IMG/VR virus record: IMGVR_UViG_3300020229_000001
Location: 1-64,000 of that record
Origin: a virus
Strand: one strand, 5' to 3'
DNA: 64,000 nucleotides
Positions 3,289 to 46,113 of this stretch are shown here, one piece after another. A model generated the notes under the pieces. The model worked only from the letters and a program-made list of their open reading frames with translations, did no database searches and had not been told where the DNA came from. A program made the translations under genes and the position numbers. Position 1 is the first letter of the stretch; the number at the start of each line of letters is the position of its first letter.

Positions 3289-3300
3289 AAGCGGTGACTT

Positions 3301-19752: not shown

Positions 19753-20406
19753 TTAGTTTGTTCTGTAAGACGGCCAATCGCAGAACGCGACGCCGCCGGT
19801 TTCTACGATCCTGGAAGCGACACTGTTTCCGATAGTGTCCAGGAATTTTGTTTGGTTTTGGTTAGTGATCAGCAGTGTGTCACGCATGGCGCCGTAGCGT
19901 CGGTCAATCAAATGCGTGAGAAGCCGGTTTTCCCAGGGGGTTTCTCCACGCTCCTGGAGCTCATCCAAGATCAGCAGACTTGGACCGCAATACGCATCAA
20001 TGACTGCTTTCTCCGAGCGTTTGCCCTCAAACGACTCTTTAATGTCGAGAAAGAACCCCATCGCCGTTGCGTACAATGGCGCCTTGCCGGCCCCCGCGTA
20101 GGTTTTGGCGATGGTTGCCGCCAATTGGGTCTTTCCGGTGCCCCTAGAGCCGCACAGAGCGATGATGAATCCGGAGTGGACCTTGGCCTCAACTCGAGCC
20201 AGGAGCGAAAGCCATCCTTCCCCTCGAGGCTCGACCGGTTGCCGGTGGCGATGGGGGATGTTGGACTTCTCCATCAGTTTGTGGGCAAGGATGCGTCGCT
20301 CCCTGGCCGCGGATTCTGCAACCCGTTGATCGATGTCGTCCTGGTCAAAAGACTGGGACATCAATGGACTCAGGACACTCTCCACTGCGTTTTTCAAGTT
20401 TTGCAT
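19753..20406 (-). CDS. DnaC/IstB-like AAA+ helicase loader
   Basis: GSRGTGKT Walker A, LLILDE Walker B, LIDRRY, TLLITN, SRI; directly after initiator. Confidence 0.88.
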   Translation of the reverse strand: MQNLKNAVESVLSPLMSQSFDQDDIDQRVAESAARERRILAHKLMEKSNIPHRHRQPVEPRGEGWLSLLARVEAKVHSGFIIALCGSRGTGKTQLAATIAKTYAGAGKAPLYATAMGFFLDIKESFEGKRSEKAVIDAYCGPSLLILDELQERGETPWENRLLTHLIDRRYGAMRDTLLITNQNQTKFLDTIGNSVASRIVETGGVAFCDWPSYRTN

Positions 20407-21151
20407 TTGTTTTGGTTTCTATGTGAATTCCGCTCCAGCCCTTTTCCATTGATTGAATCATTCCGGCTATCGCCGCCGGCACTCCGACCTCCACCGCCTT
20501 GGCGAAGACCCGAGTCCTGGACGGGAGCGTTTTGGCCGATTGCTTCTTCTTGTACGCGATATACTCAAGCCAGACGTTGACAAACTCCGGAACATTCAGG
20601 ACCGCCGGCAGGCCATCAAGCGGATGACCCCAGGCTGACTTCCGAACCCTGGGAGCTGCGACAGCAGCGACCGCCCCCTTAAAGGGGGTAGGGGGTATTA
20701 CTTGGTTACTGGTTCTTGGTTCTTGGTTCTTGGTTGGTATACCAGCACCCGTATACGGCACCTGGTATTCCTGCGGTATACTTTCTGATACCGTCGGTAC
20801 GGTTTCCGATACCGTCGGTATACCGTCGGTATTTTTAGACCATCTTTTTGACACTCTGGCCCTCTGCTGTTCCGAAAGCGAACGGTACTTTTCAAGCTCT
20901 TTGTCGGCTCGTTTGTGAGACCATACACCGTTGCAGTGAGAAAAGAACTCCCGCAAAACTCGTTCCACGGCTTCACGCTCGTCCTGAGCCCGAGCGCACA
21001 GCTTTCGGATTGCGTCGTCAACAGTGAGTTGAAGTGGTCCGTTGTTGAGGTAATAGAGATCGAGCAGGCGGCTGTAGACGCCGTGCTCTAGCAGAGACAG
21101 GTGACCGGTGTCCCGGAGGTAGTCCCCAATGTGTCGAGGGTAGTGGTTCAT
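20345..21151 (-). CDS. Replication initiator, YdaU/DUF1376-like
   Basis: MNHYPRHIGDYLRDTGHLSLLEHGVYSRLLDLYY...VLREFF...WSHKRADKEL; internal iteron-like repeats. Confidence 0.88.
   Translation of the reverse strand: MNHYPRHIGDYLRDTGHLSLLEHGVYSRLLDLYYLNNGPLQLTVDDAIRKLCARAQDEREAVERVLREFFSHCNGVWSHKRADKELEKYRSLSEQQRARVSKRWSKNTDGIPTVSETVPTVSESIPQEYQVPYTGAGIPTKNQEPRTSNQVIPPTPFKGAVAAVAAPRVRKSAWGHPLDGLPAVLNVPEFVNVWLEYIAYKKKQSAKTLPSRTRVFAKAVEVGVPAAIAGMIQSMEKGWSGIHIETKTNAKLEKRSGECPESIDVPVF
20701..20835. repeat. Probable replication origin inside initiator gene
   Basis: Palindromic TACCGTCGGTA at 20789, 20810 and 20821, plus adjacent (GGTTCTT)x3 tract. Confidence 0.65.
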
Positions 21152-27115: not shown

Positions 27116-27151
27116 TAAAAAAAAGTGCGCTGCGGTTAAACAGCGCACTTT
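27116..27151 (-). terminator. Rho-independent terminator ending the late operon
   Basis: AAAGUGCGCUG-loop-CAGCGCACUUU followed by a U-run on the minus strand. Confidence 0.75.
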
Positions 27152-27158
27152 CAGCCAC

Positions 27159-27878: not shown

Positions 27879-28136
27879 TTATTTTCTAACTGAGCGACGT
27901 GCCGGAATTCGGGCAGGTTTGCCTGGCATCGTGATTTTCTTTTCGTCTGTCTTAACTTTTTTTGCGTCGGCGGCACCTTTGTCCTTTGTTGGTGATTTGT
28001 AGGGCTTTGCAGCTTCCAGGCCGATACGGATTTCCGGCGAGCCGGTGTTTAACGAAACGCCAGAGTGGGTCTTTTCGGGCGCCTGGTAGGACGCTTTACC
28101 AGGCGTCACGGGGGTTTTTTTAGGTGGGAATCTCAT
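27879..28136 (-). CDS. Lys/Pro-rich basic protein
   Basis: 85 aa, coupled. Confidence 0.5.
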   Translation of the reverse strand: MRFPPKKTPVTPGKASYQAPEKTHSGVSLNTGSPEIRIGLEAAKPYKSPTKDKGAADAKKVKTDEKKITMPGKPARIPARRSVRK

Positions 28137-28354
28137 TTGTAATTCTCTTTTTCTGTTAACATTGTCTCAGCAAGCTTGAATGACTCTACAGAAGCGTCGG
28201 ACGAGTCCCATCCGGCAGCAAGCAGGCCGGTAAGAGCTGCCGCCGCAAAGTAGTCCAGGATGCTCATGCCGCTGTTTGATCGCACCGCCGCATTGTCTCG
28301 GTCGCCAGGGTAAGCCTGGACAGGAAAAGCTGGGTAGATAGGTATTCGTTTCAT
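28133..28354 (-). CDS. Conserved small phage protein (PAFP...GMS..DYFAA.A type)
   Basis: PAFP, GMSILDYFAAAALTG, A..ML motifs. Confidence 0.75.
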   Translation of the reverse strand: MKRIPIYPAFPVQAYPGDRDNAAVRSNSGMSILDYFAAAALTGLLAAGWDSSDASVESFKLAETMLTEKENYK

Positions 28355-28357
28355 TTA

Positions 28358-29059
28358 TTAAAAAAGTCTGTTTAGCCAGAGCGTCCTGGCTCCAATCGGG
28401 TCGATCAGAGGTTTTCCGAGGCGCTCGTTGACATTATTATGCAGACGCACCGACCAGTCAAACAGACGAGTGTAGTCCGGCGGGTCGGCAGCCAGGAAGG
28501 CTTCCAGGTGCGCTTTGCACGGGCACCCGTCAAACGGGAGGTCTCCCATCCAGTCCAGGAGCCAATGGTGCATATACCTAGGTTTCCCTTCGTGCCGGAG
28601 CGCGTACAGGTGCAGCTCCGCCCAAAACCTCGGGCCGGCCAGCATGATTTGGCTCTTCCGGCTTTCGCCGCGGTCGTAGATGCGCTCAACCTCGTTGCCG
28701 GCGTTGATGACCCATTGGTTATGGGCGTCCCAATCAGTTGAGAATGACATTGCGACCGTTTTCTCGGTCAACATGGCCGCCTGGTGTTGGATATGGTACG
28801 GCGCCTTGGGATCGTCGCCAGGCTCCTCGAGCTTGGGATGATCGGTGTCAAATTTGGTGACTTCCTCGTCGGTGATCCCGTCGCGCTTACAAAGCCATGC
28901 TTCGACAAGCTCATGCAGGGCCACCAGGAGGGCGCTTTGGTCCTGGCCGCCGTAGTCTGGCGCCGTAATCTTCAGCGCGCCGTCTGGGAGCCATTCCCAG
29001 TCGCCGGCTGTAGGATAACGCATGGCCGACGCGTCGATGGTCTTAATCTCAATCCTCAT
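28358..29059 (-). CDS. Fusion of a zincin/metal-binding-like domain and an Erv1/Alr-like sulfhydryl oxidase domain
   Basis: N-part RYPTAGDW...LHELVE...EPGDDP.APYH.QH; C-part FWAELH...LP.DGCPCKAH...FDWSVRLHNNVNERLGKP. Confidence 0.7.
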   Translation of the reverse strand: MRIEIKTIDASAMRYPTAGDWEWLPDGALKITAPDYGGQDQSALLVALHELVEAWLCKRDGITDEEVTKFDTDHPKLEEPGDDPKAPYHIQHQAAMLTEKTVAMSFSTDWDAHNQWVINAGNEVERIYDRGESRKSQIMLAGPRFWAELHLYALRHEGKPRYMHHWLLDWMGDLPFDGCPCKAHLEAFLAADPPDYTRLFDWSVRLHNNVNERLGKPLIDPIGARTLWLNRLF

Positions 29060-30324
29060 TCGTTAAACACGCTGAGGTTGAGCTTCTCCATTTCCTTGAT
29101 CTGCTCTCGCACCTGCTCAATGGCAGAGCTTTTTGACTCGAGGTAGTAACCTTCAACCTGCTCTGCGTTCTCTAAAGCGTGCGCAAACGCGTCTTCCATT
29201 GTGTCGCCCAGGCCGATAACAGCGCCTATCTCCGGCAGCCCACAGTCCTGGGGGATGCAATAAAAGCCGTCCTTGTTCTTGTAAACGTTCCGGAGCTTAA
29301 CAAAATCCCGGATCTCGTCGGGGAATTTGACCTTCTGCCAATTCTGGTCCGCCCAGGACGAGTGGAGCATGATCTCGGCGCCATAAATGGCCGTCGGCTC
29401 AGGATCAACCACAACGCCGTTCGCTCCGTACCACATACACTCTGCCAGGTTGGAATACTGCTCCTGGTAGAGCTCGTTTGGAGGACTCGGAGCCCTGGCG
29501 CAGAAATCGATCATGTAGGGATCCATGTCTTTCCCGATCCGGATCTCGGTCGAGAAAAAGCCGCGGTATCCGTAAGCCTCGAAAACCGGCTTCATCGCCT
29601 CATTAAAGCGAGTTAAAGGTTCCGGAAGGTCGGCGTAGTTTTTGAAGACGGAGGCGAACCCGCAATCCTTGATCTCCAGGCCGGAGATGAGCGTATTCGG
29701 AAACTGGCCGTCGATTGTCCAGGCATCTGTCCCAAACTCAACGCGGTCGGGAAGGTCTTCCTCGACAATAAATTTGAGGTCATGCTTGAGCGGCCCGAGC
29801 TTGTACTCGACCTCGTCCAGTTTTGGCTCCACCTCTTCATACGAGGGCGCCTTGAATGTTTCAAAAGTGCCGCGGTACTTGTCGATCTTGACGTGAACGT
29901 CGTCGTGCTCCTTCAGGAAGGAGCGCAGGTTGTCCATGCCAGTGATTTCCCAATACTTGCCAACAGGCAGGCCGGTGCGCTCGATAATGCGCTTCATGCC
30001 GGCGCGGTCCAGTTCCATTTCCTCGCCCAGGCGAGAACCCCAGACAACCTTACCCATCCGGTCCAGCATTCGCTGCTCCCATCCAAAATAGATATCGGGG
30101 AAGCAGAAGAAATCGACGTCGTCAAAATGCGGGCCGTAGATGGAATCAACCAGCTCCAGGCCGTCCAACCCCTTGCCGATCCAGGCGGTGTTCAGCTTGG
30201 CAAAGGCGCACTCCCAGGGGCAATAATAGTAAACCTTTTTGAAGGTCTTGCTTAGTTTTAGCGCAAGTTCAACAAACAGGCCGTTGTCTACGACAAGACA
30301 GACTACGTCTTTTGGGTCTTTCAT
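29056..30324 (-). CDS. ATP-grasp ligase, PurD (GAR synthetase)-like
   Basis: MELDR..MK.....GLP, HVK, FIVEE, GYRGFFSTE, YMIDFCAR.P.P, GAVIGLGDT.E.A...A; three-domain GARS layout, 422 aa. Confidence 0.78.
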   Translation of the reverse strand: MKDPKDVVCLVVDNGLFVELALKLSKTFKKVYYYCPWECAFAKLNTAWIGKGLDGLELVDSIYGPHFDDVDFFCFPDIYFGWEQRMLDRMGKVVWGSRLGEEMELDRAGMKRIIERTGLPVGKYWEITGMDNLRSFLKEHDDVHVKIDKYRGTFETFKAPSYEEVEPKLDEVEYKLGPLKHDLKFIVEEDLPDRVEFGTDAWTIDGQFPNTLISGLEIKDCGFASVFKNYADLPEPLTRFNEAMKPVFEAYGYRGFFSTEIRIGKDMDPYMIDFCARAPSPPNELYQEQYSNLAECMWYGANGVVVDPEPTAIYGAEIMLHSSWADQNWQKVKFPDEIRDFVKLRNVYKNKDGFYCIPQDCGLPEIGAVIGLGDTMEDAFAHALENAEQVEGYYLESKSSAIEQVREQIKEMEKLNLSVFNE

Positions 30325-30590
30325 TTGCAGTTCCAGCGTTTAAGTGATGCGGCTTTACGGGTTGGGCGACCCTTTTCGTCTTTCATCGGACCGGGATTGC
30401 CGCTCATTCTAGCGCAGAATGAAGCCTTTCTGCCAGCGTCGGCCTTGGTCTTTGGGTGCGGCGCAGGCGCCTTCAAGTTGCTGCCAGTTGCCGCGTTGAT
30501 TTTGGCTCGGCCCTTGGCTGTTAGCCCGGCGCCCCGGGAAACAGGAAGCTTATCTCCCTTCGATACAGATAGTTTTGGTGTTTTTGGCAT
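30321..30590 (-). CDS. Basic DUF6321-like phage protein
   Basis: GLTAKGRAK.N..TGSNLKAP...RKASFCARMSG..GPMKDEKGRPTRKA.SL.RW.C. Confidence 0.75.
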   Translation of the reverse strand: MPKTPKLSVSKGDKLPVSRGAGLTAKGRAKINAATGSNLKAPAPHPKTKADAGRKASFCARMSGNPGPMKDEKGRPTRKAASLKRWNCK

Positions 30591-30591
30591 A

Positions 30592-33500
30592 TTATTCTTC
30601 GTCTTCTCCTTCAGCTTCTTTTCGCAGTTTTTCTGCCGCTTTGATTGCTTTTTCTTTTTCCATCAATTGCTTCATTAGCCCCTTATTGGGAGACTTAACG
30701 CCAGTGAGGTTTGCCTCATCGGCCTCGGACAAGAGTCGCACTGTTTCCCCTTTACGATCCACTTGGAACAAACCTCCAGCTTGGATGATGTCCAAAGAAA
30801 ACTTGGCGGCGTCAGCGTAGTCCGCTGGCTCTGCTCCGCTCGTTGCCGCCCCGTACTTGCCAAACAATTCCTTCTCGTTAAACCACAGGGCAGCCTGCAT
30901 ATCGGCAATGGTAACAACAATCCCGGCTTGAGCAAGCCTAGCCTGAGCCTGCTCCATCGTTGTCTGCTGAAACGCCCGCTCGTTACTGGCCCGAGGTGCG
31001 CCAAGCGGCGTTGTGCGATCCTGCACCCAATTCTTGGCGGCTCTTCGTAATTCGGTTTTTCCCTTGAAGCTGCCAGTTCTGAATACTTTTTCAAGGTGCT
31101 CCGCAAACTCAAGCATCGCGCCGCTGTCTTCTAGTAATTTGTGGAATTCTTTTTTCGACCATCTGGGCGCGTCTTCTCCGTAAAGGTAGGGCTCTTCAAC
31201 TCCTTTTTTAATGAGCACTCGGTCGGTATATTCCTTGCCTTTTTTGAGCGCCTGATTTCTGTTGTATTCCTCAATCAACGAGTCTTGAAACCGCTCAAAT
31301 TGATGCCCTTCCTTGAGAGGATCATACTTAAATGAGCGACCAAGAATTCGATTCCACGTTCTGGTATACCAAAGGTCGGCGGTTAGCGTTGAGTAGTCGC
31401 CGTGGAGGTTATTAATGAAAGATCCGATCTTTGGCCCAAAGACCATAAACCCGGTCACCATTTGATTTTTGCCGCCCTCAACAGACAGCGGCTCCCCGTT
31501 GTAATACAGGGAGGTGTCTTGCTTCAGATTCTTGTTCCAATTTGCAACAGTGTCCGTTTTGAACAAAAGGGCTCGGAGCTGACTTGGGGTATGCCTTGTC
31601 AGCAACTCGTGCAATTTCAGTATGTTGTTTTCAATCGCGGCAGTTTTATCGCCGAATGTGCCATGCAGTGCGGTGACAATTTCTGGAAGGGTTTTGCCAT
31701 TTTCTAACATTAGCGTTACCCGAGTTGCCATTTTGCCATTCTCGAAGACGTCGTTGCCCTGAGACGCAATCCCGAGAACCGCATCGAAAACAAGGCTCTT
31801 GTCTGCGTCGTGCTGGGGAGACCCAACCTCGAGCCACGGAAAGAGTTGCGAGTACATTCCCTTCATCCGCTTCAGGGCCGCGTCGTACCATCCAATTGCG
31901 TTTGGAGACTTTGGATTCAGCGCGGCCCTCGCCATGTGCTGCTGAACCTCGTCGGCCACAACTGACGAAATGATATCCATCGCCCTCGGGCTATAGTCTC
32001 CGGGCAGGATTACCCCATCACTGGCCGCTCGATTCTGCAACGCATGAATCATGTCCGGGACGGCTGTCTCCCGCTTGCCTGCAAGCGTGTACGTTGACCT
32101 CACGGGCAGGATTTCGGTTCCTGCCAACAGCGGACTGGCGCTCCGGGCCATTGGGTCTACCGGGTACAGCTTGTCCTTTATGTACTTGGCGTCGGAGTCA
32201 CTGAGTCCGTACCGCTTGGCGTAGAGGGCTGGGTCGAAGATGTAGCCTTGCGCGGCTGCTGCCTTGGCGTAGTCGATAAGAAGGCTATCGATACTTCGTT
32301 GTAGTAAGGACTGTCCACCGGAAGTGGCTTGAAGCCAAACCGGGAGAACTCTCTGGTTGTCTCTTCCCTTGAATATTTTTTCAGTTTCATAAAGCTCTGA
32401 GGCTACAATTGTTTCGTATGATTGATCGATTGATGCTGATTTTTGGATTTCACTGAGCTTGCTGGCAAAGTCCTCGGTCCCAAAGTTGAGTGCCTTGATG
32501 CCCTTGCCGTCCGTTGTCGTAGAAACGTCTACGCCAACTTCTCTCGCTTTGTCAAAAGCCAACTTCAACTGGTCGTCGGTGAGCTTTGTAGAATGGATCA
32601 GGTATGCTGCCTGAGTGCCTTCTTTAAGGTCAATTGACGGCTTGTAGGTGATGCCAGCGTCTTGAGCAAAAGCAAGAGTTAGAAGCTGAGTGATTTGCTT
32701 TGCCTTGTCAAACGTAAGTTCAGGATGAACCAAATCAAAAGATGGTTCTACCTTCCCCTGCCACGTTCCTGCAATCGGCCTAATCTCCAGACCATCAAGG
32801 CCAAAGAAGTCTTTTAGTATCCCGTTGAAGCCATCGGATTTCAGAATGTCATGCACTGAGTCTCCAAGCTCTGCCATGCTGCGAATTCCAAGCGGATTGG
32901 CGGTGAATGGAGCAGGGGTTGCCTTTAGCGACACCTCTTCAAACGACCTGTTTAGCTTTTTGACTTGAGCTTTCCACGCGGCGTCTTCCGGGCTCATGTT
33001 CTGCATCTTTTCCGGGAACTGCGAGCGCATCTCTTCGATCTGGGTGTCGAGCGCGGCAACCTTTTCCGCATAGGCGGCCTTCTTTGCTTCAAATTCCGCC
33101 GTTTTTTCAGGCTTCTTTGCGTTCTTAGCCGCCTCGTCTGCCTTGGCAAGCAACTCAAGTTGGCGTTGTTTTTTAAGCTGCAATTCGCCCCATGTTTCAA
33201 CTGCTGCCTTTTGGCCGGAAACCGTTTTAAGCTGATCTCTTAGCTCGGATGCCGTTCTGTAGGTGTAACCGTGCTCACCGGGCTTGGCTCCAATCACAAC
33301 GCTGAACATCCCGCGTTCATCAGTGATGGTTTTGGGAAGCGGAGCAATTGACGCAAGAGCAGGCAGACGCTCTTCCTCTTTTGGCTCTATTTTTATGCCT
33401 TCCAGCGCCCCGGGAATATTTTCGTTGTCCGGCATAAACCGCACCTGAGCACCTTCAAGGGCTCCCGAGGCGCTGGGGTCGGTTAGGAATGGTTTAATTT

Positions 33501-36500
33501 CGTCGTATTTTTCACGACTGATGGAGCCATTCACCATTTTAGTAAACAGCTTTCGATTAAACGCCTTGATGTCATTGGCATCCGATGCATTTGCATAACG
33601 CATTGGCACATCGATGACAAAAATGGCCTCCTTTCCATCGGGGCCAAGCCCCGAAACCACATTTCCTTCGTGGGCATCTCGCAAAAATGTTTTTGCCTTT
33701 GGATTGTAGAATTCAAAAAGATTGCCTCTTACTATCCTGAAAAAGTTTCTTTGATTTAAATATGAATCAATTTGGTTAATTGATAACGGGTCTAAAATTT
33801 TGACGTAAGGCTGCTCCGTGACAACATACGCACCGGGATCAGATCCCGTTACCCTTCCAGTAACAAGGTCTGAAAAATTTCCCTGAACATTGGCTTCCGA
33901 TTCCTTTGCTTGATCGTGGATTCCCTTAACGGTGATTTTTGTTTCAGGGAAAAACTCATTGTGCAGTCGAATTCGGTCGAAATAATCACCCCAGTTTTCT
34001 TCAAACATGGGAATATTTGTCCGCTTTTCAACTTTGCCATTTTCATTTCCAAGAATGACTTGATGCTCGGCCCCTGATTTATACCCCGACGCCCTCCACC
34101 TCTCGAGAAAGTCCCGATGATCCAAAAGCGCCCCGTGCTGGCGTGCTGCATCAACTAGACGGGTGTCTTGCGCTCGCTTTGCTGCCTCTGACGCACGGCG
34201 ACTTTCAGTTTCTCCTCGAACCTGTTCTGATTCTGAATCCTTTCCTCTAACGGAACGCTCGAAAACACTTCCGAGATTCTCACTAGGTGCTCTCGACCCT
34301 TGTTTGTTTTGGCTGCTTCCTGCTCTACTAACCTCTCCCTCTCTGCTCTGTCTGGAATTAAGTATTCGTTCATATTCTTCTTTTTCGGCAAAATCGCCAG
34401 ATTCTTTAGGATTACCATCAGGCATAAATCGAGCCTGACCGCCTTCCACAGAGGAGCGCATCTCGGGAGTAATGGCGACTTTCCAGATTTTGGGATTTTC
34501 TCCAATCTCTACAACTTCTCCACCTTCTCCGCGTCCCCGGTTGTTAAGCGCAACAACTGCGTGAGAACGGTTGGTGAACGTCATTGTTGGAGCGATATTT
34601 GGATTTCCTTGAATGACGTACTCTTTCTTGCCTTCAACCTCACCCGTTTCAACTTTAGCACCCCATTGCTTGACGTACTTGCCAATTTCATTTGGTAGGA
34701 TTTTGTCGTAAAAGCCTGTCATGCCTTCGCCGCCAATATCAAGGTCTAATCCGTCAGCTTTTGCGTATGCCGTAACCGGATCTGATTGAGAATTGAGGTC
34801 AGCAATAAGCTTTTCTGCAAGTGGCTTCCCTATTGTGTCAGCTACCTCCTGAGCAGACAGTCCGGGTTTATTTATTACTGATACAGGAAGGTTTGATCCA
34901 TCTGTGTTTTGGTATGCACTGACATGATACTTTCCGTCACCGTCATTTATTAGGTCAATGGCTGAGACATGTTTACTTAGGGAATACCGATCAGCTTGCG
35001 CTTCTCCTCCGGTCCAGCCAATCCAATTCTTGCCGTCAGCAACAGCTTTTTGAAGTGCGTGCTTGAATAGTTGAATGGGCCAATCTTTGCGGAATGGTGC
35101 GTCGGCAACGCCGTCTTGACGCATTGCTCCTGCGTTCATTAAGGCTGTCCATTCCTTGCGCTCTTCAGGTGTTGCCGCTTGCCCTTTTGCTTCAATTTCA
35201 CGCACCCTATTATAATCGCGAAGTTGTTCATTTTTGTACCCTCTTTTCCTAGCCGCCTGATGCAGATCAGATTGCAACTCTTCAATCAGCCTGCCAGTTC
35301 CAAAGTCTTGAGTGCGCATATGCGCAACATAGTTTGGAACGTCTGGAAAGTGGCTTGAGCGAAACTCTCCAACTCCAACAACATCGCTTTCTCCCCTGCC
35401 ATCAATTCTGGCTTGATCTAATGTGTCATAAGTGCCTTGTTCTCCATCAATAAATTCAACATCAAAAGATCCATCGTTTAATTTTTTAAATGAAGCAATT
35501 GGGTCAATTTCTGTTTTAGACGGCATTCTAAGAACAACCTCTTCGTAGTTTGTGCCGCCGGGAAGCTTGTATTTGGAGTATTGCGTCTCGTCTTCTCCGT
35601 ACTCAGAATCGATTTGGTTGGTCTCAGAAACGAACTCTTCCGCTTCTGGTCTACTCATCCCAAACATTTCCATTGCAGATTTCTCTGCTTCCTCAATTGT
35701 GTTAAATTTTGCAGCGCCTCCCCACTCTTCAGCTTCAGAGTAGAACTCGCCTTCAAAGGACTTTGCTTCTCGCATCCTCTGCGTCTCAAACTTTGCAACG
35801 TAACCGTCTTTCAAGAACTGCTTAACGTCATCTTTCGTGACATATCCTTTCTCCGCCTGCGCTGCGTCAATAAACTGATTGATGCCGCTCCATTTCATTT
35901 CGTCAGGCTTCACGCCACTACCCTTCTGCGGGTCCAGAATGCCCCTTATTTGCTCCGCACTGGCCCGATTAGGCATCTTGTTTAATAGAACCCGTCCAGC
36001 CTTGCTGTAGAACCCGGGGGCGACCTTTGTAGGGTCTTCCTCACGCTCTGGCATGAAGCGAATGCCTGACGGGATTTTGCTAGATGCCCACATGCTCCCG
36101 CCTTGCGGATCTGGTCTGCCAGTTTCCGTATCAAATAATTTTTCTCTTCGTAATGTAGCCTGTTTTGATATTGGCTCTCCGTATAGTTTTGTTGCACCAA
36201 TGCTTTGAGCATATTTTGCAATTTCTCGGTACAAAGCTTCTCCGTATCCTTGTTTTTCAAACCCGGAAGAATTGGCAGACAGCACCACCTTCAGGAGCTC
36301 TGGGTCATACGGATCTCTAGTGACAGTTGCGCTAGCCGCAACCTTGTTAGACATTTCCGGGTAAATGTAAATGTGCGTGTCTGGGTCTTCTTCAATTTCC
36401 TCAACTCTAGATTTGTATTTTGGCAACCTTGCCTTCATTACGTTCAGCTCTTCTTGAGTTGGTACGCGACGGTATTCATCTTCCAATTTCTCAGGTATAA

Positions 36501-39500
36501 ACCGGACCTGCGCTTCTGCTGGCTGAACCGTTGCCTTGATTTCACCAGTGCCTTTTGGGTCGTACTTAGCAGAGACTGATCCCAAACCTTTTAGGATACT
36601 ACCACCGAGCGCAGGACGCTGTTCTTCTTTAGCCTCCTGTTCGGGCATAAACCGGGCCTTGTACGGGATCGGGTACTTATACTCCGTGTTTGCGTTCTCT
36701 TCGGCAGCAGTGTGCGAATCAAGGCGGAATGATTTGATGATCTGGTCAAAGCTAGACTGTTTATCGAGCTTGCGTTCGGATCGGCTAAACTTGTTCCGGT
36801 CTAGGTCTGGAATAGACTCAACGTCGGGCACATTTGGATTTGGTGCGCCGAGCATCTTTTCGTAAATGGTTCGCTTGAGCTTTGCAACATTTGGGTCTGC
36901 ATCGAGTCCCTGCCAGCCCGGGACACTTGCGTCGGGGTTCGCAAGGTTCGGAAGCAGCACCGTTCTAAACTCGTTCCAAAATTTTTGTGTGTCGCCGCCC
37001 CAAGGCTCAAACACTCCCTTGGCATATTTCTCATAAAGCCCAACCTTCCTACGAAGGTCGCTAATATCCCAAGCAGTTGTGTAAAAATTGCCAGCCTTTG
37101 AGAGGTGCAATTGCAATGGGACGATCTGCCGAATCTTTGGAGAAAACGCCTGATAGTTGCCTTTGTCATTCAACCGGGAGGCGTAATCGATATCAAGCAC
37201 CGTCCCGTCGCCCCGAGTCATTAGGTCGTCGTACTTAAACAACAGTTCCTTCATTGAGGCTGGAACAATACTTTCAGGAAGTGCAGCAATTGCCGCACGC
37301 TGCGCTGGAGTCATTTTTCCAGTGTAGTGCAGGTCTTCATCATCTTTTCCCTGCCCGCCTTTGATCGCCCGGAACCGTCCCAGCTCAGATGGATCTCCAG
37401 CGTTATCGATGGCATCACGGACCATTTGCACCCGGCGCTTAATATGCGCTACGGTTTCCTTGTTTTTGCGTTCTTTTGGCTTCCCGGTGGCCTCGTCGTA
37501 AGCAATCTGACGTTCTACTTGTACTCGCCCACCGACCGGGACTTCGAGTCCAACTAATTCAGGATGTAATTCTCCAAATCCCCGTTCCTTGTTTGGAACA
37601 TTATCCCCAGTCGTATCGTCTTGGTGATAAATCCAACTACCTTCAGATGCGTTGTTGTCAGTTAGGTTAACCGTCTGCACTACCTTACCATCTGCGTCCG
37701 TAACTACAGCCACTGGAATCGTCTCAAATTTCCCTGTGTCCTTAAAATACTTGTTAAGCAACTCTTTTGAGTTTTTTACGTCTTTTGGCGTAATGGGCGC
37801 AGCCACCGCTTCTCCCGGCTCTGCGTCAGTAAAGTCGCCGTCGTACTTCTTCATCTCCCGCTCGACGTTGCGTATCGCACGCATTACCTCAGGGCTGTAC
37901 GTTGCGCCAACAAGCCCAGAAGTCCACTGTTTGTACACCGCTGGCCCTGCAATTGCGTACAAGTGATTCAACGCAGATTTGACGTTGTTGCTACTGACAC
38001 GAGAAGCCAACCAGTTAATTCCTCGCTGCGCTGGAGACTCTGGGTCGCCAAAGAACCTTCCTGCGTGAGCTTCTGCGAGAGTTTCCTCCCGCATCAATTC
38101 AACAATCTTGTTCTTGTTAAAGTCGTTTGCCGCTTCATCCCAAACTCCAGCGGCTTCAGCGTAATCCTGAACTTGTTCTGCTGTCTTTCCTTCTAAATAT
38201 TTTTTGTAAAATTTGCCAAACAGATCATCCCGGGACATTCCGGGCTCCGCAGGAGTGATTTGTCGCACATTGCCATTTTCATCAACAGCCTCTGTGCCGA
38301 ATATTTTGTTGAACAAAGGTGCGATCCGCTTGCGGTATTCGTCCTTGCCAAACAAGCCGTGCCCAACAACTTCGTGAGCAAGGACGTTTGAGATAGCCTC
38401 CCCAGAAAGCTCTGCCTTTTTTAAAGCGTTTTCAACATTCACAAACACCGTATCTTTGGCAGGGTCCATCGTAAACCCGTCCTTGGCGGTGCCTTTCCCA
38501 ATCATAATGCCGTCAGCGGTTGGATTCTTTTCTAACGCCTGCTCAATAGTCATTGGTGCTCCAACCCCATTGAAATTAGGGTTTTCCGTAATCATCTTGT
38601 CGATAATTTGGCTAGATGTAAGCAACTCAATGTTCATGTTGCTGTTAGGAGTCAGCACCCCGTTTATGAGGTTTGACACTTTCCCTAGCGACAATTTAAT
38701 GCCATCCTCGAACGCTTGCCGGGCTTCCGGGGGCGCAACTATGTTTTCCTGATGGAGTCGATAAGCAAACTCGTAATCTGCTTTGGCCTTAGCCGCTTCA
38801 GGTGTATTTGCCCCGTTCACCATTTCGGCAAAATGCGTTTTCTGAGCCCGATCAAGGCGTTTTTCAGACTGCTTGATGACCTTGTCCCAGTTCAAATTTG
38901 TGACATTTTCTCGAGATTCTGGGCTTAACCCAAGCATAACCCTTTGAGCCTGTCGCATCTCTGCGTCTCGGTTCATTTTGTTGCGAATCGGATCATTCCC
39001 TACTAATCCTCCGAGAACCTGCCCGTGAATAAATCCATAGGTCGCAAACTCAGCCCACATTTGTGCAAACTCTTGAGCGTCCTTGTCTTCAAGTACTCCC
39101 ATTGCAACCATCATTGGCAGCATTGACACGTTGTGTTGCACAAAGACGTTTGCGTTTTTTTCAATAAAATCCAACGCTTTGCCGCCACCAGCTTTTTGCG
39201 ACCAGTTCAAAAATCGTTGCACCTCAGGAGATGCTGATTCCATTTTTTCTAACGCCTCAAAGCGGCCCAATTCAGCGCCGGATAACCTTCCAGCTTTAAG
39301 TAGCTGCTGCCCAAGGCGAGGCGCAGCCGCAATCGCCTTACCAGCAAGCTGAATTCCAAGCCCAGTTCCTGCGCCTTTTAACGCCCCGGCCAGCGGATCA
39401 TCAGACGCCAATGCACCAGCGCCAGCGCCAAGTAGAGTCGACCCGGCATATTTTACAGGTTTTGGAAGGCTTTCAAAGGCTGTTTTAGACCGATCAATGG

Positions 39501-40998
39501 TGTCTGCAATGTTGCCAAGTGGCTTTTCGAGCCACCCGGGCTGCTCTCGGGCAATTGCCTCCGCTTCACGCTGCGCTTGCAGTGCCGCGCTATCAGCGGC
39601 GTACATAACATTGCGAGCCTCACCAGTCTTTCCAGCCGCTCTCAACCCTCGACCTATTTGCTGACCTAACATGCTCAAATCTCGCACAACTGCCCCGCCC
39701 AACCCAAACACGTTTAATGGCGATGTCATGGCAATTGCGCCAACTTGTTCAGGGTCTTCCCGTAGACGATTGGCTTCTTTTATTTGAGCTTGCACCCCAG
39801 TTTCAGCGGCTGCTTCTGCTTGCAATCGACGGTTAGCCCTCGCTGCTTCAATATTGCCTCCAAATCCAAAAACAGCGTCTTCTGCTGGGGGCATCAACTT
39901 TTCAACAACATCAACCCAGTATTTTTTAACGGCAGGATCTTGCCACAGGTCATCAATTGTTCTGGCCAAAACAGCGGGATTTTTTTCCCTCTGCATGTGG
40001 TCGATATACTTTGCATTCATCCGAGTTGCAAAGTTCTTCCTAGCTTGATCCATTGCTGGAGCAGCCGCAGCTTCACGCAATGCAGCTTCTTGCTCCATAG
40101 AGATGGCAGGAGCAATTGATGGGTCTGCTAGAGTCCCTTCCGCAGTGGCTTTAGCAATGCCAACCTTAGCCTTGTCCCAAAGCATAGCTCTACCTTCAGA
40201 AAAATCCTTTGTTGCCTTTAAAAGGTCTTCTCTAGCCATCAAAAGGGCATCGCCAAACACCCGAGCGGACCGATACGTTTTGTCTCGGAGCGACAATTCA
40301 GCGTCTCGGATTTGCTGTTCGTTTAGTCCCTTTTTTTGCTCTTCAGTGAGCGTTTTGCCTTTCCCGAAATCTTCAGGGCTACCGACATACACTGCGCCTG
40401 TAAGAGCATCCTTTGCTAGCCTGCCAGCGCCAGCAGCAAGAGGAGGCAAAGACGCCAACATTCCAACCCCGGCCTTCCCTGCGTCTGCAATTAAATCAAA
40501 CGCACTTGTATCCTTGTTCCACCTGTAATCGAACAGAGACTGCAACTGCACAGGGTTTTCGGCCATGTTGTACCAAGGAACTGTCTTGTGTAGCTCCTCA
40601 AGGTCGTGCGGGTCGGTGATTCCTTTGAACACCGTTTCCGTAATCCCCTTGCGGGTGTTAGGATCAGTGATTCCAGCGTATGCATTAAACTTGCCTGTTG
40701 GGCCAACCGGGACTGGGGCAAACTGCCCAGAGCCGAGTGCTCCGCTGCCAATCAACGAAGACTGTTCTGGAGGCGCAGTGCTGCCGACCATTTCGGGACG
40801 AAACATCTCGCCGCCACCAGACAGCGTGCCACCAGAAGTCTGCATTCCGGGGGATTCCCCCTTGAATGCAGCTAGAATTTCTTCATCAGAAATGCCTTTT
40901 GCCTCTTCCTTGCTGTAAATAGGCTGACTGACAGATGGCTGTTCTCCCTTAAACGCAGCCAGAATTTCTTCGTCTGAAATCTTTGGAGTTTCAGCCAT
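30592..40998 (-). CDS. Giant polyvalent ejection protein (zincin, GNAT, kinase and HhH-like domains)
   Basis: 3468 aa after the internal virion genes; LAHEVVGH...EE zincin; FEKQGYGEALY GNAT; SGAEHQV..LHNEFFP..QPYV..DAHEGNV..VID kinase; GWY..GPKIGSF.NNL.GD...T.DLW..R..QAALW domain. Confidence 0.85.
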   Translation of the reverse strand: MAETPKISDEEILAAFKGEQPSVSQPIYSKEEAKGISDEEILAAFKGESPGMQTSGGTLSGGGEMFRPEMVGSTAPPEQSSLIGSGALGSGQFAPVPVGPTGKFNAYAGITDPNTRKGITETVFKGITDPHDLEELHKTVPWYNMAENPVQLQSLFDYRWNKDTSAFDLIADAGKAGVGMLASLPPLAAGAGRLAKDALTGAVYVGSPEDFGKGKTLTEEQKKGLNEQQIRDAELSLRDKTYRSARVFGDALLMAREDLLKATKDFSEGRAMLWDKAKVGIAKATAEGTLADPSIAPAISMEQEAALREAAAAPAMDQARKNFATRMNAKYIDHMQREKNPAVLARTIDDLWQDPAVKKYWVDVVEKLMPPAEDAVFGFGGNIEAARANRRLQAEAAAETGVQAQIKEANRLREDPEQVGAIAMTSPLNVFGLGGAVVRDLSMLGQQIGRGLRAAGKTGEARNVMYAADSAALQAQREAEAIAREQPGWLEKPLGNIADTIDRSKTAFESLPKPVKYAGSTLLGAGAGALASDDPLAGALKGAGTGLGIQLAGKAIAAAPRLGQQLLKAGRLSGAELGRFEALEKMESASPEVQRFLNWSQKAGGGKALDFIEKNANVFVQHNVSMLPMMVAMGVLEDKDAQEFAQMWAEFATYGFIHGQVLGGLVGNDPIRNKMNRDAEMRQAQRVMLGLSPESRENVTNLNWDKVIKQSEKRLDRAQKTHFAEMVNGANTPEAAKAKADYEFAYRLHQENIVAPPEARQAFEDGIKLSLGKVSNLINGVLTPNSNMNIELLTSSQIIDKMITENPNFNGVGAPMTIEQALEKNPTADGIMIGKGTAKDGFTMDPAKDTVFVNVENALKKAELSGEAISNVLAHEVVGHGLFGKDEYRKRIAPLFNKIFGTEAVDENGNVRQITPAEPGMSRDDLFGKFYKKYLEGKTAEQVQDYAEAAGVWDEAANDFNKNKIVELMREETLAEAHAGRFFGDPESPAQRGINWLASRVSSNNVKSALNHLYAIAGPAVYKQWTSGLVGATYSPEVMRAIRNVEREMKKYDGDFTDAEPGEAVAAPITPKDVKNSKELLNKYFKDTGKFETIPVAVVTDADGKVVQTVNLTDNNASEGSWIYHQDDTTGDNVPNKERGFGELHPELVGLEVPVGGRVQVERQIAYDEATGKPKERKNKETVAHIKRRVQMVRDAIDNAGDPSELGRFRAIKGGQGKDDEDLHYTGKMTPAQRAAIAALPESIVPASMKELLFKYDDLMTRGDGTVLDIDYASRLNDKGNYQAFSPKIRQIVPLQLHLSKAGNFYTTAWDISDLRRKVGLYEKYAKGVFEPWGGDTQKFWNEFRTVLLPNLANPDASVPGWQGLDADPNVAKLKRTIYEKMLGAPNPNVPDVESIPDLDRNKFSRSERKLDKQSSFDQIIKSFRLDSHTAAEENANTEYKYPIPYKARFMPEQEAKEEQRPALGGSILKGLGSVSAKYDPKGTGEIKATVQPAEAQVRFIPEKLEDEYRRVPTQEELNVMKARLPKYKSRVEEIEEDPDTHIYIYPEMSNKVAASATVTRDPYDPELLKVVLSANSSGFEKQGYGEALYREIAKYAQSIGATKLYGEPISKQATLRREKLFDTETGRPDPQGGSMWASSKIPSGIRFMPEREEDPTKVAPGFYSKAGRVLLNKMPNRASAEQIRGILDPQKGSGVKPDEMKWSGINQFIDAAQAEKGYVTKDDVKQFLKDGYVAKFETQRMREAKSFEGEFYSEAEEWGGAAKFNTIEEAEKSAMEMFGMSRPEAEEFVSETNQIDSEYGEDETQYSKYKLPGGTNYEEVVLRMPSKTEIDPIASFKKLNDGSFDVEFIDGEQGTYDTLDQARIDGRGESDVVGVGEFRSSHFPDVPNYVAHMRTQDFGTGRLIEELQSDLHQAARKRGYKNEQLRDYNRVREIEAKGQAATPEERKEWTALMNAGAMRQDGVADAPFRKDWPIQLFKHALQKAVADGKNWIGWTGGEAQADRYSLSKHVSAIDLINDGDGKYHVSAYQNTDGSNLPVSVINKPGLSAQEVADTIGKPLAEKLIADLNSQSDPVTAYAKADGLDLDIGGEGMTGFYDKILPNEIGKYVKQWGAKVETGEVEGKKEYVIQGNPNIAPTMTFTNRSHAVVALNNRGRGEGGEVVEIGENPKIWKVAITPEMRSSVEGGQARFMPDGNPKESGDFAEKEEYERILNSRQSREGEVSRAGSSQNKQGSRAPSENLGSVFERSVRGKDSESEQVRGETESRRASEAAKRAQDTRLVDAARQHGALLDHRDFLERWRASGYKSGAEHQVILGNENGKVEKRTNIPMFEENWGDYFDRIRLHNEFFPETKITVKGIHDQAKESEANVQGNFSDLVTGRVTGSDPGAYVVTEQPYVKILDPLSINQIDSYLNQRNFFRIVRGNLFEFYNPKAKTFLRDAHEGNVVSGLGPDGKEAIFVIDVPMRYANASDANDIKAFNRKLFTKMVNGSISREKYDEIKPFLTDPSASGALEGAQVRFMPDNENIPGALEGIKIEPKEEERLPALASIAPLPKTITDERGMFSVVIGAKPGEHGYTYRTASELRDQLKTVSGQKAAVETWGELQLKKQRQLELLAKADEAAKNAKKPEKTAEFEAKKAAYAEKVAALDTQIEEMRSQFPEKMQNMSPEDAAWKAQVKKLNRSFEEVSLKATPAPFTANPLGIRSMAELGDSVHDILKSDGFNGILKDFFGLDGLEIRPIAGTWQGKVEPSFDLVHPELTFDKAKQITQLLTLAFAQDAGITYKPSIDLKEGTQAAYLIHSTKLTDDQLKLAFDKAREVGVDVSTTTDGKGIKALNFGTEDFASKLSEIQKSASIDQSYETIVASELYETEKIFKGRDNQRVLPVWLQATSGGQSLLQRSIDSLLIDYAKAAAAQGYIFDPALYAKRYGLSDSDAKYIKDKLYPVDPMARSASPLLAGTEILPVRSTYTLAGKRETAVPDMIHALQNRAASDGVILPGDYSPRAMDIISSVVADEVQQHMARAALNPKSPNAIGWYDAALKRMKGMYSQLFPWLEVGSPQHDADKSLVFDAVLGIASQGNDVFENGKMATRVTLMLENGKTLPEIVTALHGTFGDKTAAIENNILKLHELLTRHTPSQLRALLFKTDTVANWNKNLKQDTSLYYNGEPLSVEGGKNQMVTGFMVFGPKIGSFINNLHGDYSTLTADLWYTRTWNRILGRSFKYDPLKEGHQFERFQDSLIEEYNRNQALKKGKEYTDRVLIKKGVEEPYLYGEDAPRWSKKEFHKLLEDSGAMLEFAEHLEKVFRTGSFKGKTELRRAAKNWVQDRTTPLGAPRASNERAFQQTTMEQAQARLAQAGIVVTIADMQAALWFNEKELFGKYGAATSGAEPADYADAAKFSLDIIQAGGLFQVDRKGETVRLLSEADEANLTGVKSPNKGLMKQLMEKEKAIKAAEKLRKEAEGEDEE

Positions 40999-41001
40999 AA
41001 A

Positions 41002-43074
41002 TTACTCTTTTGAGGAAGTATTCCATCCGCCATCAGCGTTCCATCCGTTCTCAAACTGTGATGGCGCAGGTGCAGAGAAATACGAAGCGTGAAACCCGGG
41101 CACTTTGAAGTATGTCAGGGATCCAAAAGCTTCCTTTTTGGGGTGTTTTAACTCATCAAGGTTCGGAGGGATAAAGCTGTTGTTTTTCAACGCAATGTAA
41201 TCTTTAACAATCGGGTTTAGTTTCAAAAATTGCTCACGTTTATCTTTGGGCATTTCCCCCTTTAAAGTGCCAGTTGCGTCATCAAAATACTCACCTTTCA
41301 ATTTTGCGTGCTCAATCAATGCTTGCTCTAGATCTTTCCCTCCGAGTTGCTCTTTCAAGAACTCCTTTGTCTTCAGTAGCGGATATTTTACAGGCAACTT
41401 GATAGGCGAAATGTTTGGGTTTTCGCTTTTCAAAATAGACTCAATATTTGTCAACTGAGCGTTCACCTGATCCGCAGACGTGTTGTAAGTGTTAAGCATC
41501 AAATCTTGCATTGTGCGGACATCACGTTCATCAAGCGTAGCCCCAGAGTTCCAAAATTGCACTTTTTTGGCAATGCTCTGCCATCCGCTCAAACCTGAAA
41601 ATGCGTGTTTTGTTTCTTTGAATTGGGCTTCGGTAGGAGCTTTTCCAGAAGCAAATTGAGCAAACAAATCCATCATTTCTTGATGGACTGCCCCCAATGA
41701 TGCTTCAGCATTATTTTTACGAGCAATTTTATCTTCCGCCACGGCTGTAAGCATGCGCTGCATTGCGTCTTTACGAGTGTCCATCAACTTTGATGTCGGA
41801 TGCCTTTCGTAATTATTTGCCATTGCCGTCACTTTGGCTTCTCGGGAAATATCAAGGCGCTGCTGTTTCAATCCTTGAGTTGCAGCATGTTCTTCAACGG
41901 TGCGAATTTCGGCCCTGCGTTCTTTTGTCACATCTATGTAATCAACGTGAAAATAAGGAACTTGCGTGGTCGGATCTTTGGACACCGCCATAACCTCTCC
42001 AAAAGGATATTTCCTGTTGAATGTAAGCGCCTGAAGATTTGCTAAATCTTTTCTTTCTGGATAACGAGTCAGCATGTCTCGCTGATTAACTTTTTGAATG
42101 TCTGGTACTCTAGCCAAGGCCCCTTTTGGTTTTGAGTCTTCAGGCTGAAGTGATGGCTCTCCTAACATTCCCAATGCAGGCAGATATTTAACGGCATCAG
42201 TCTGGGAATTGTCTTTTTCCCCGGCAGGAGTTCCAAGTGCAGGAAGCTCTTCTTTTTTTGATTCTTCTTTTGGTTTTGGAGGTTCAAAAGTTGGTAGTGG
42301 CAAGCTTGAAAGCCTTCCCTTTTTGATAATTTCAGCCTCTTGCTCTGCTGGCGTTAATTCAACAGGAACCGCAATAGGAGCCGCCACAGGAATAACTTTA
42401 GGCGGAGCCGCTGTGGAAGCCACAGGAACAACCTTAGGTGGAGCGGCGATAGGAGCAACTGAAAGCGACATTGCAGGCCCACCCGTTGGGGCTCCGTTTA
42501 ATGTCATTGTTGGCATGCTTGGAATAAGAGGAGAAGCAGTGGCAATGCCTTGCAGTGCTCCAACTTGGTCAGTAGAAGATGCCTGCGGGAGCGGGAGCGG
42601 GTCAAGTGTGGGGGCAATGCGTGTGTTGGTTGCTCCAGTTGATGCATCACCTTGATCGCCTTCATCACCCCCAGCCCCAATAACCGGGTCTAAAGAAAAC
42701 TGTTGCTTTCCTTTCCCAGAAGAAACAGCGTCCACCCGGGCCATCGCCTCTTTGTGCATGTCCTCGTTTCGCTTTTCTTGAGCCGCCTGTTTCTGCTCTT
42801 GTAAAGCTTGCTGTCTCTCAGCTAACGCTGTCCTTTTGGCGTCTTTCTCTGCCGCATATCTGGCGCTGATTCCAGCCCCAATGGACTTGATTGCGCTCTC
42901 GATCCCTTGAGCAATGTAAGGCTTGCCTTCAGGAACCACCCATTGAGCACCTGCACTAATTTGAATTGGATTCTGACCAAATGACAACGGACGAATACCT
43001 GCCAGCGCATTATAATTAATGTTTGGCGTGGCTAATTGAATTGGAATTCCAGCGGTGTCGTAAAACAAAGGCAT
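41002..43074 (-). CDS. Internal virion/ejection protein
   Basis: Pro/Ala-rich linker and helical C-terminus; position before the giant protein. Confidence 0.65.
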   Translation of the reverse strand: MPLFYDTAGIPIQLATPNINYNALAGIRPLSFGQNPIQISAGAQWVVPEGKPYIAQGIESAIKSIGAGISARYAAEKDAKRTALAERQQALQEQKQAAQEKRNEDMHKEAMARVDAVSSGKGKQQFSLDPVIGAGGDEGDQGDASTGATNTRIAPTLDPLPLPQASSTDQVGALQGIATASPLIPSMPTMTLNGAPTGGPAMSLSVAPIAAPPKVVPVASTAAPPKVIPVAAPIAVPVELTPAEQEAEIIKKGRLSSLPLPTFEPPKPKEESKKEELPALGTPAGEKDNSQTDAVKYLPALGMLGEPSLQPEDSKPKGALARVPDIQKVNQRDMLTRYPERKDLANLQALTFNRKYPFGEVMAVSKDPTTQVPYFHVDYIDVTKERRAEIRTVEEHAATQGLKQQRLDISREAKVTAMANNYERHPTSKLMDTRKDAMQRMLTAVAEDKIARKNNAEASLGAVHQEMMDLFAQFASGKAPTEAQFKETKHAFSGLSGWQSIAKKVQFWNSGATLDERDVRTMQDLMLNTYNTSADQVNAQLTNIESILKSENPNISPIKLPVKYPLLKTKEFLKEQLGGKDLEQALIEHAKLKGEYFDDATGTLKGEMPKDKREQFLKLNPIVKDYIALKNNSFIPPNLDELKHPKKEAFGSLTYFKVPGFHASYFSAPAPSQFENGWNADGGWNTSSKE

Positions 43075-43075
43075 A

Positions 43076-43588: not shown

Positions 43589-43590
43589 AA

Positions 43591-44148: not shown

Positions 44149-44149
44149 A

Positions 44150-44632: not shown

Positions 44633-44638
44633 AATTTG

Positions 44639-45472: not shown

Positions 45473-45476
45473 AGTT

Positions 45477-45866: not shown

Positions 45867-45867
45867 T

Positions 45868-46113
45868 TTATGGGAATAATTGAACACTTACCGTTTCGTC
45901 AGCGATAGAAATGTTCTTGGTTGCTTCGTAAGCTATGACTTGCGCCCGTTGTGTGGAATTTCCGCAAACTACGCACGGGACACACCCAGAGCCAACGCCA
46001 CTTATTAGCGGAATACTGGAATACAAGGGGATAATTCCATCATTGCCATATGGAGAGACAAATTTGTTTGGAAAAACCGAAACCGCCGTTGATGCCGATT
46101 TAATGGATGGCAT
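45868..46113 (-). CDS. Small Cys-cluster virion protein
   Basis: MPSIKSA...GCVPCVVCG. Confidence 0.55.
   Translation of the reverse strand: MPSIKSASTAVSVFPNKFVSPYGNDGIIPLYSSIPLISGVGSGCVPCVVCGNSTQRAQVIAYEATKNISIADETVSVQLFP

Follow-up and report, generated by a model that had tools for sequence, protein, structure and literature searches.

The 64,000-nucleotide stretch of viral DNA analysed here (positions 1 to 64,000 of the IMG/VR record IMGVR_UViG_3300020229_000001, hereafter the window) encodes a 233-residue protein with an Erv/ALR domain at residues ~137-233, in which the usual CxxC is replaced by CxC. Erv enzymes that form disulfides are a textbook hallmark of eukaryotes and of the large DNA viruses that infect them; here the domain belongs to a tailed phage. 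It is not free-standing but fused, as the C-terminal half of the protein, to a zincin-like HExxE domain, and the fusion gene is translationally coupled to an ATP-grasp gene. We judge the chances to be about even that this bifunctional protein works in the cytoplasm as an accessory Erv-type oxidase putting disulfides into phage proteins, an enzyme whose flavin adenine dinucleotide (FAD), activity and clients we infer.

The identity of the domain is established by sequence and fold alike. The Pfam profile Evr1_Alr (PF04777) matches residues 145-220 at 33.8 bits, above its gathering cut-off of 27.6 (E = 4.4e-8), and most of 90 homologues have a precomputed match to the same family. Compared with PDB sequences, a profile of the 91-member family reaches pB119L of African swine fever virus (ASFV; 3gwl) at E = 4.6e-13, and ALR, Erv1 and Erv2 at E = 1e-9 to 1e-5. 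The AlphaFold2 (AF2) model of the fusion protein, computed with the family alignment as input, has two domains and a pLDDT of 95.5. Predicted residues 137-233 superpose on 3gwl in Foldseek with a TM-score of 0.75 and a root-mean-square deviation of 2.3 Å. In VIA-align, the model scores Z 13.5 over 94 residues against 3gwl and Z 11.7-12.7 against Erv1, Erv2 and mimivirus R596, whereas unrelated folds all stay at or below Z 6. A sequence-only reading of the window had proposed an Erv1/Alr-like sulfhydryl oxidase domain of a CxC variety, to be checked by a search with Evr1_Alr and by fold prediction, and both support it: the profile match lies above the cut-off and the modelled helical bundle is that of the Erv family. 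The interval given there, 28358..28640, is the 3' part of the 233-residue open reading frame (ORF) 28358..29059 on the minus strand (~aa 141-233 and the stop codon), and the motif strings quoted from it, FWAELH, DLPFDGCPCKAHL and WSVRLHNNVNERLGKP, are all found in the translation.

The cysteine pair lies within GCPCKAH (residues 178-184). In the alignment with CxxC relatives, Cys181 corresponds to the second, flavin-proximal cysteine, and Cys179 is placed one residue closer than the usual first one. Because of this CxC, we file the domain as a homologous variant and not as a canonical member of the family. Across 22 C-domains that are 40-60% identical, C-P-C, W146, H150, H184, H207, N208, V210, N211 and R213 are invariant; W146, H150, H207, N208, V210 and N211 are among the FAD-contact residues of the family. 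The C-terminal aromatic residue W228, aligned with pB119L and ALR, is likewise invariant in alignment A3. CPC is retained in 48 of 48 fusions, even in a subclade only 29-34% identical whose N-domain motif has decayed. With three cysteines in all (57, 179 and 181), the protein has no second shuttle disulfide on a flexible tail, a feature of Erv1, Erv2 and long ALR that minimal viral enzymes also lack; Cys57 is itself lost in one subclade (L043-L050) where CPC is retained. From these residues and the model, the domain would be expected to bind FAD and, by analogy with its relatives, to act as an oxidase.

What such a domain might do is best seen in the wider clade to which it belongs. A C-domain profile compared with 1.84 billion cluster representatives retrieves 3,152 proteins at E ≤ 1e-3. 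Among the best 145 representatives outside the query rows, 93 have CxC (with any middle residue) at the aligned site and 46 have CxxC, and no more than 6 changes are needed to account for the trait on a tree of 149 leaves. Proteins of the CxC clade are mostly 90-180 aa long, and their genes are common on IMG/VR contigs; several have tape-measure or portal genes nearby, and some of the loci are siphophage tail modules. The family had been described in the earlier reading as characteristic of eukaryotes and their large viruses, a restriction that this large clade on contigs of uncultured viruses removes. In 17 of 21 loci, the gene directly upstream of a non-fused CxC-Erv gene encodes a protein whose Cys content is 4% or more, a level reached by 25 of 205 background genes (Fisher 6e-11). 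These partners measure 240-480 aa, contain 12-41 Cys (4-9%), often overlap the start of the Erv gene and fall into ~13 groups unlinked by BLAST; most partners have a CC(C)xC cluster at the N-terminus. Of the 31 invariant columns in one partner family, 22 are Cys; the fold modelled for this family (pLDDT 85.5) has no convincing match in the PDB (Foldseek E > 1e-3, VIA-align Z ≤ 5.8). Two loci encode a fusion of the CxC-Erv domain with a GT4 glycosyltransferase (Glycos_transf_1, Glyco_trans_1_4; L152:7956-9278 and L167:7875-9209), directly after a 34-Cys protein. There is thus strong associative evidence that the CxC clade acts on dedicated Cys-rich late proteins, and since a Cys-rich protein directly precedes the CxC-Erv gene, a disulfide-forming role is likely for the clade.

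Some further observations concern the spread of the clade. On some contigs a Cys-free tape-measure gene precedes the Cys-rich/Erv pair at a distance of two or three genes, and other CxC-Erv proteins, 330-620 aa long, have C-terminal extensions with no match in Pfam. Two free-standing CxC proteins compared at BLAST level with 50,697 deposited phage genomes match a single entry, a Mollivirus record. A pattern scan (alignment A5) of 185,579 species genomes yields four metagenome-assembled genomes (MAGs), all from Verrucomicrobiota or Planctomycetota and assigned to Chthoniobacteraceae, Verrucomicrobiaceae, Pirellulaceae and Pirellula (L197-L200); 200 other Planctomycetota genomes give no match to the pattern. 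One Pirellula MAG holds three copies, and one of the MAG matches is located inside a 1,138-aa ORF. These matches in the PVC group may represent prophages or phage contigs binned with the MAGs, and they give a hint of the hosts of some clade members.

For the phage of the window, we propose the following mechanism. Cys179-Cys181, at the start of the active-site helix of the C-terminal 97 residues, would form the redox-active disulfide, by analogy with the CxxC of other Erv enzymes. A substrate dithiol would give two electrons to this disulfide, the electrons would pass from the Cys pair to FAD, and the flavin would be re-oxidised by O2 to yield H2O2. The DNA of this virus occurs in lake-water and freshwater metagenomes, and we assume the lake water to be oxic. 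Since neither a signal peptide nor a membrane segment is visible in the sequence of the fusion protein, the reaction would take place in the otherwise reducing bacterial cytoplasm. The job assigned to it, introducing disulfides into phage proteins, is proposed because the usual genomic partner in the clade is a Cys-packed late or tail-module protein. The most plausible clients in this phage would be two fibres, by way of the Cys clusters in their N-terminal anchors, with the capsid protein as a further possibility; the fibres resemble the partners of the sister lineages in that they too begin with a Cys cluster (MSCDC), and one of them is collagen-like. The benefit of the oxidase is probably conditional, and the enzyme accessory and not essential, because close relatives live without the Erv domain. 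The N-terminal HExxE domain would serve another function, one linked to the PurD-like ligase. That a single enzyme of this family can act in such a compartment is indicated by the CyDisCo system (PMC8601162 and PMC11180911), where yeast Erv1p is enough to bring about disulfide formation when expressed in the cytoplasm of E. coli.

Several observations weigh against this proposal, and those at the active site come first. The canonical CxxC beside the flavin is absent, the site reading C179-P-C181; to our knowledge, no Erv enzyme has a CxC next to the flavin; and both FAD binding and activity are deduced from sequence and model. The same points would suit a domain that is no oxidase at all, the Erv fold serving instead for structure, dimerisation or metal binding, and the CxC and His184 binding metal or being merely structural; the promiscuous fusion of the domain to other enzymes would fit this as well. 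We hold this to be quite improbable. Every class of FAD-contacting residue of the family is invariant together with both cysteines, the pattern expected of an active flavoenzyme, and it is difficult to see why an inert module should be paired with Cys-rich partners. Strained and oxidising, CxC disulfides serve as redox-active sites in the Erv pathway, in the C-G-C tail of Erv2 and the C-P-C of Mia40, both relay sites and not beside the flavin.

The remaining points against the oxidase concern its clients. The sequence-only reading had counted 7 Cys in the capsid, 5 Cys in each fibre anchor and a CVPCVVC in 45868..46113, and had called 10320..10904 Cys-rich. The counts are correct: the capsid candidate does have seven, both fibre N-termini read MSCDCNS..C..CDP..MCY, and the putative gene at 45868..46113 contains GCVPCVVCG. 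The capsid itself is identified solely by a feature match in Atlas (0.97, to N4-gp56/Phage_capsid_3/4 clusters), which is a lead. In 10320..10904, nine Cys are indeed present, but their CxxC...CxxC pattern (CEKC...CSSC) looks like that of a zinc ribbon; this 194-aa protein, which has 8-9 Cys in Erv-plus and Erv-less relatives alike, looks zinc-binding rather than a disulfide client. It is encoded between an 807-aa protein and the probable terminase region. The overall Cys content of 1.1% is ordinary. No homologue of the Cys-rich partners of the sister lineages is found in this genome or next to its Erv gene, and the ~40 ORFs of the window scanned with Pfam, most of them without any match, include no thioredoxin-like relay protein.

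A direct comparison is offered by five relatives with the same synteny, two of them complete genomes with terminal repeats, in which the gene consists of the N-domain only; neither PF04777 nor a search with the C-domain of the window finds an Erv domain in these five. Three of these Erv-less genomes were fetched whole, G001 and G002 complete and G005 near-complete. All three keep the fibre anchor (MSC[DG]C..C..CDP..LCY) and, wherever an orthologue is found, the Cys counts of the 807-, 713-, 624- and 194-aa proteins. The capsid candidates of G001 and G005 are 83-84% identical to that of the window and have the same six or seven Cys, while G002 and G004 have a variant candidate with three. Over whole proteomes the Cys content does not differ, at 1.12-1.27% in Erv-plus genomes (the window, G006 and G015) and 1.07-1.47% in Erv-less ones. 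In this small sample (11 Erv-plus against 4 Erv-less capsids, 3 against 3 genomes), the correlation between the domain and virion Cys content that the earlier reading anticipated is not seen: relatives without Erv keep the cysteines of fibre anchors and structural proteins, and those of the capsid in 2 of 4. Since the same cysteines persist in them, the oxidase is accessory and not required for these residues. The idea of a phage-encoded cytoplasmic disulfide pathway that cross-links the virion is therefore retained in part: a disulfide role is likely from the partners in the sister clade, whereas the link to virion cysteines fails in this lineage, and the clients in this phage are unproven candidates. 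In the tree of N-domains, which is weakly resolved and from which only the placement of truly Erv-less rows is taken, the G001 gene falls among Erv-plus genes, consistent with a secondary loss of the Erv domain there.

That the domain can be missing from close relatives, as is often the case for accessory host-takeover genes, and that no gene for a dedicated Cys-rich client lies nearby in this lineage, would also fit an enzyme directed at the host. Such an oxidase would drain host thiols (thioredoxin, glutaredoxin or low-molecular-weight thiols) or produce H2O2 against host metabolism or defences, and virion disulfides would be incidental. We think this unlikely: the coupling to a Cys-rich late or tail-module protein in sister lineages points to dedicated protein clients, the gene ends the block of virion and ejection proteins while the small early genes lie elsewhere, and glutathione is generally a poor substrate for Erv enzymes.

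The N-terminal half of the fusion is a separate domain. Its three-stranded sheet and helices give weak VIA-align matches (Z 4.2-5.1) to AQ_1354/YbeY, selecase, PprI, CapP and Wss1-type folds; in Atlas it falls among unnamed viral clusters, the nearest named one being Peptidase_M78 at 0.78. The zincin signature HExxH is replaced by H49-E-x-x-E53 followed by C57, and His49 is not universally conserved. Among the best 80 IMG/VR loci (fused and N-only forms together), the domain is fused to Erv in 48 and stands alone, at ~125 aa, in ~30. Its HExxE...C motif is intact in 20 of 20 fusions with an ATP-grasp neighbour and has decayed in 17 of 19 without one, where CPC and the flavin motifs are kept; 12 N-only proteins have the ATP-grasp neighbour and no Erv domain. 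Within L003-L082, the motif is intact in 32 of 32 loci with an adjacent ATP-grasp gene. As the motif is mostly decayed where the ligase is missing while CPC and the flavin motifs stay, the chemistry of the N-domain appears to go with the ligase, and the Erv domain to be constrained separately. These patterns suggest that N-domain and ligase form one functional unit. The ATP-grasp protein alone has neither a Pfam nor a PHROG match; a profile of 21 homologues reaches phosphoribosylamine-glycine ligase (2yw2) at E = 1e-19 and 2xcl at 5e-19 over residues ~85-405, and thereby confirms that it is PurD-like.

This arrangement invites a different assignment, in which the Erv domain, together with the HExxE domain and the ligase, oxidises a thiol in a small-molecule or peptide product, or acts as a redox switch on these enzymes. 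The fusion and the 4-nt overlap between its ATG and the stop of the upstream ATP-grasp gene speak for it, as do the synteny of the DUF6321, ATP-grasp and N-Erv genes in ~20 relatives and the 7-10 Cys of the ATP-grasp protein. We nonetheless give it a low probability, because the parts separate freely, as the 19 fusions without ATP-grasp and the 12 N-only genes with it illustrate; because CxC-Erv domains elsewhere are fused to unrelated enzymes such as the GT4 glycosyltransferase; and because the Cys counts of the ATP-grasp protein are equal with and without Erv. A disulfide-forming oxidase with protein clients is our preferred assignment for the C-terminal half. Its broadest extension, a long shot in our estimation, would make CxC-Erv the equivalent, in viruses of bacteria, of the disulfide machinery known from poxviruses and ASFV, stapling tail and fibre proteins, and here wired with the ligase and the zincin-like domain into a module for virion maturation or a small-thiol relay, in which, for example, a low-molecular-weight thiol made by the ligase is oxidised by the Erv domain into a diffusible oxidant.

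Among known systems, ASFV pB119L is the closest in sequence (27-29% identity) and in structure. It is likewise a minimal helical bundle of ~100 aa without a flexible shuttle disulfide, from a virus that assembles in a reducing cytoplasm. In contrast to the C-P-C, zincin-like fusion and bacterial host of the phage domain, pB119L is a free-standing enzyme of a eukaryotic virus and has a CxxC (C-T-R-C). It passes oxidising equivalents to pA151R and pE248R, while for the phage no such relay was found among the ~40 ORFs scanned. The cellular enzymes Erv1/ALR and Erv2 (4E0H, 3W4Y, 1OQC, 3MBG and 1JR8) share the fold (Z 11.8-12.7) and the W-x3-H and HNxVNxxLxK motifs; unlike the phage protein, they have a CxxC beside the flavin and a second shuttle disulfide on a tail. 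Mimivirus R596 (3GWN/3TD7; Z 11.7; PMC3509050) is a viral Erv fused to a second domain of unknown role, with the differences that it has a CxxC and that its extra ORFan domain, which bears no relation to the HExxE domain, is located at the C-terminus. The vaccinia E10R-A2.5L-G4L pathway provides the concept, a viral Erv-type oxidase that works in the cytoplasm and makes disulfides of virion proteins (Senkevich et al. 2000, as cited by PMC10598087); the same paper files the poxvirus enzyme under another Pfam family, PF04805. E10R is essential for morphogenesis and has two relay proteins, whereas close relatives of the phage manage without the domain and the ORFs scanned show no relay. A further comparison is with the Cys-rich/CxC-Erv gene pairs of uncultured phages, of the same clade and on viral contigs, several with tail-module or portal genes. 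Their Erv proteins are mostly free-standing or fused to GT4 and directly follow the Cys-rich protein, a neighbour that the gene of the window lacks. Specific to this locus are the HExxE fusion, the coupling to a PurD-like ligase, the absence of an adjacent client gene and the natural Erv-less siblings.

Our literature search found no description of a phage Erv oxidase. According to PMC13576161, no such enzyme is described from bacteriophages, and PMC10598087 gives the distribution of the family as eukaryotes, a few groups of bacteria and some double-stranded DNA viruses. If the CxC proteins are active, tailed phages make structural disulfides in the reducing bacterial cytoplasm with an enzyme of their own; the family would then have a second active-site design, a strained Cys-x-Cys beside the flavin, and enzymes of ~100 aa suited to the bacterial cytoplasm would be candidates for producing disulfide-bonded proteins in bacteria. 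Near-identical phages with and without the domain are natural controls, so that the benefit of the oxidase to the phage is directly testable. The features discussed above are located in Table 1.

Table 1 Location of the fusion gene, its domains and motifs, its neighbours and the candidate clients
Feature	Coordinates	Strand	Evidence
Whole gene, zincin-like N-domain and Erv/ALR domain	28358..29059	-	ORF translation; 90 full-length metagenomic homologues; AF2 pLDDT 95.5
Erv/ALR-fold domain, ~aa 137-233, helices 137-155, 164-172, 181-191, 199-214, 221-230	28361..28651	-	Pfam, PDB profile, Foldseek, VIA-align
N-domain, aa 1-132, three-stranded sheet and helices	28664..29059	-	DSSP of model; weak zincin-like matches; N-only loci
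Cys179-Pro180-Cys181, putative redox-active pair in place of CxxC	28517..28525	-	Invariant in 22 diverse C-domains and 48/48 fused relatives
W146-A-E-L-H150, helix-1 flavin-binding motif W-x3-H	28610..28624	-	W, E, L, H invariant (alignment A3); aligned with pB119L, ALR
H207-N-N-V-N211-E-R-L-G-K216, helix-4 flavin-binding motif HNxVNxxLxK	28412..28441	-	H, N, V, N, R invariant (A3); aligned with pB119L, ALR
H49-E-L-V-E53-A-W-L-C57, conserved N-domain motif (HExxE...C)	28889..28915	-	E50, E53, A54, C57 at least 90% conserved
PurD (GAR synthetase)-like ATP-grasp ligase, 422 aa, distant; translationally coupled upstream neighbour	29056..30324	-	Profile vs PDB
DUF6321 protein, 89 aa, between giant Cys-free protein and ATP-grasp gene	30321..30590	-	Pfam PF19846, 83 bits
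Small Cys-free protein, 73 aa, directly downstream of fusion gene	28133..28354	-	phrog_2201, E 4.4e-6
Candidate client: N-terminal anchor, aa 1-95, of collagen-like fibre; 5 Cys at 3, 5, 19, 62, 83	57918..58202	-	Pfam Collagen and PHROG tail-fibre matches (whole protein)
Candidate client: N-terminal anchor of second fibre (ORF 1..2265, truncated at the start of the record); 5 Cys at 3, 5, 17, 61, 82	1981..2265	-	
Candidate client: probable major capsid protein, 401 aa, 7 Cys, six conserved in most relatives	3344..4549	-	
Cys-rich protein and CxC-Erv pairs	L119:6760-8477, L121:7060-8270, L123:7201-8291, L144:5419-7244, L152:6549-9278, L140:6641-9662, others		

All long ORFs of the window are on the minus strand, and the genes upstream of the fusion follow the order 3,468-aa gene, DUF6321 gene, ATP-grasp gene, fusion gene. 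The fusion protein has no match in PHROGs, and a tblastn search of the 50,697 deposited phage records returns none either. The DUF6321 protein is 95% identical to its copy in the relative G006, and the small protein encoded downstream of the fusion gene is present in 40 of 80 related loci. A strong terminator-like hairpin on the minus strand (27121..27152, with a T-run after its 13-bp stem) lies downstream of the Erv gene at a distance of ~1.2 kb and possibly ends a transcription unit to which the genes of the giant protein, of the ligase and of the fusion would belong.

From its gene content, with PHROG tail-fibre matches, an endolysin of GH108 and PG_binding_3 domains, Sak4-like and exonuclease genes and a capsid-like protein, the virus is a tailed phage of a bacterium with peptidoglycan. 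The whole record measures 94,385 nt, and its last 31 kb (63512-94385) are collinear with 3375-31862 at 67-91% nucleotide identity; the end of the window (63472..64000) reaches into this repeated part. Relatives with terminal repeats are 60-65 kb long. The record is probably a chimeric assembly of ~1.5 genomes from two related strains, hence the duplicated capsid, endolysin, fibre-anchor and Erv genes. The second Erv copy (90892-91599) is 63% identical to the first, and the endolysin genes of ~190 aa (2740..3312 and 58724..59299, with 4 and 5 Cys) represent one strain each.

Other genes of the window may be mentioned briefly. The gene of the collagen-like fibre spans 56988..58202 and adjoins a glycosylation cassette, and a 268-aa DUF1376 protein (20345..21151) is found among small early-type genes. 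Seven consecutive proteins, 5,096 aa in total and including that of 3,468 aa, are free of Cys (30592..45887), as are a 1,305-aa fibre-like protein (59484..63401) and a 422-aa protein (6385..7653). We considered the Cys-free run as a sign of an oxidising infected cell and ruled this out, the giant proteins of Erv-less relatives being equally Cys-free; the absence of Cys may instead reflect the passage of ejected proteins through the tail.

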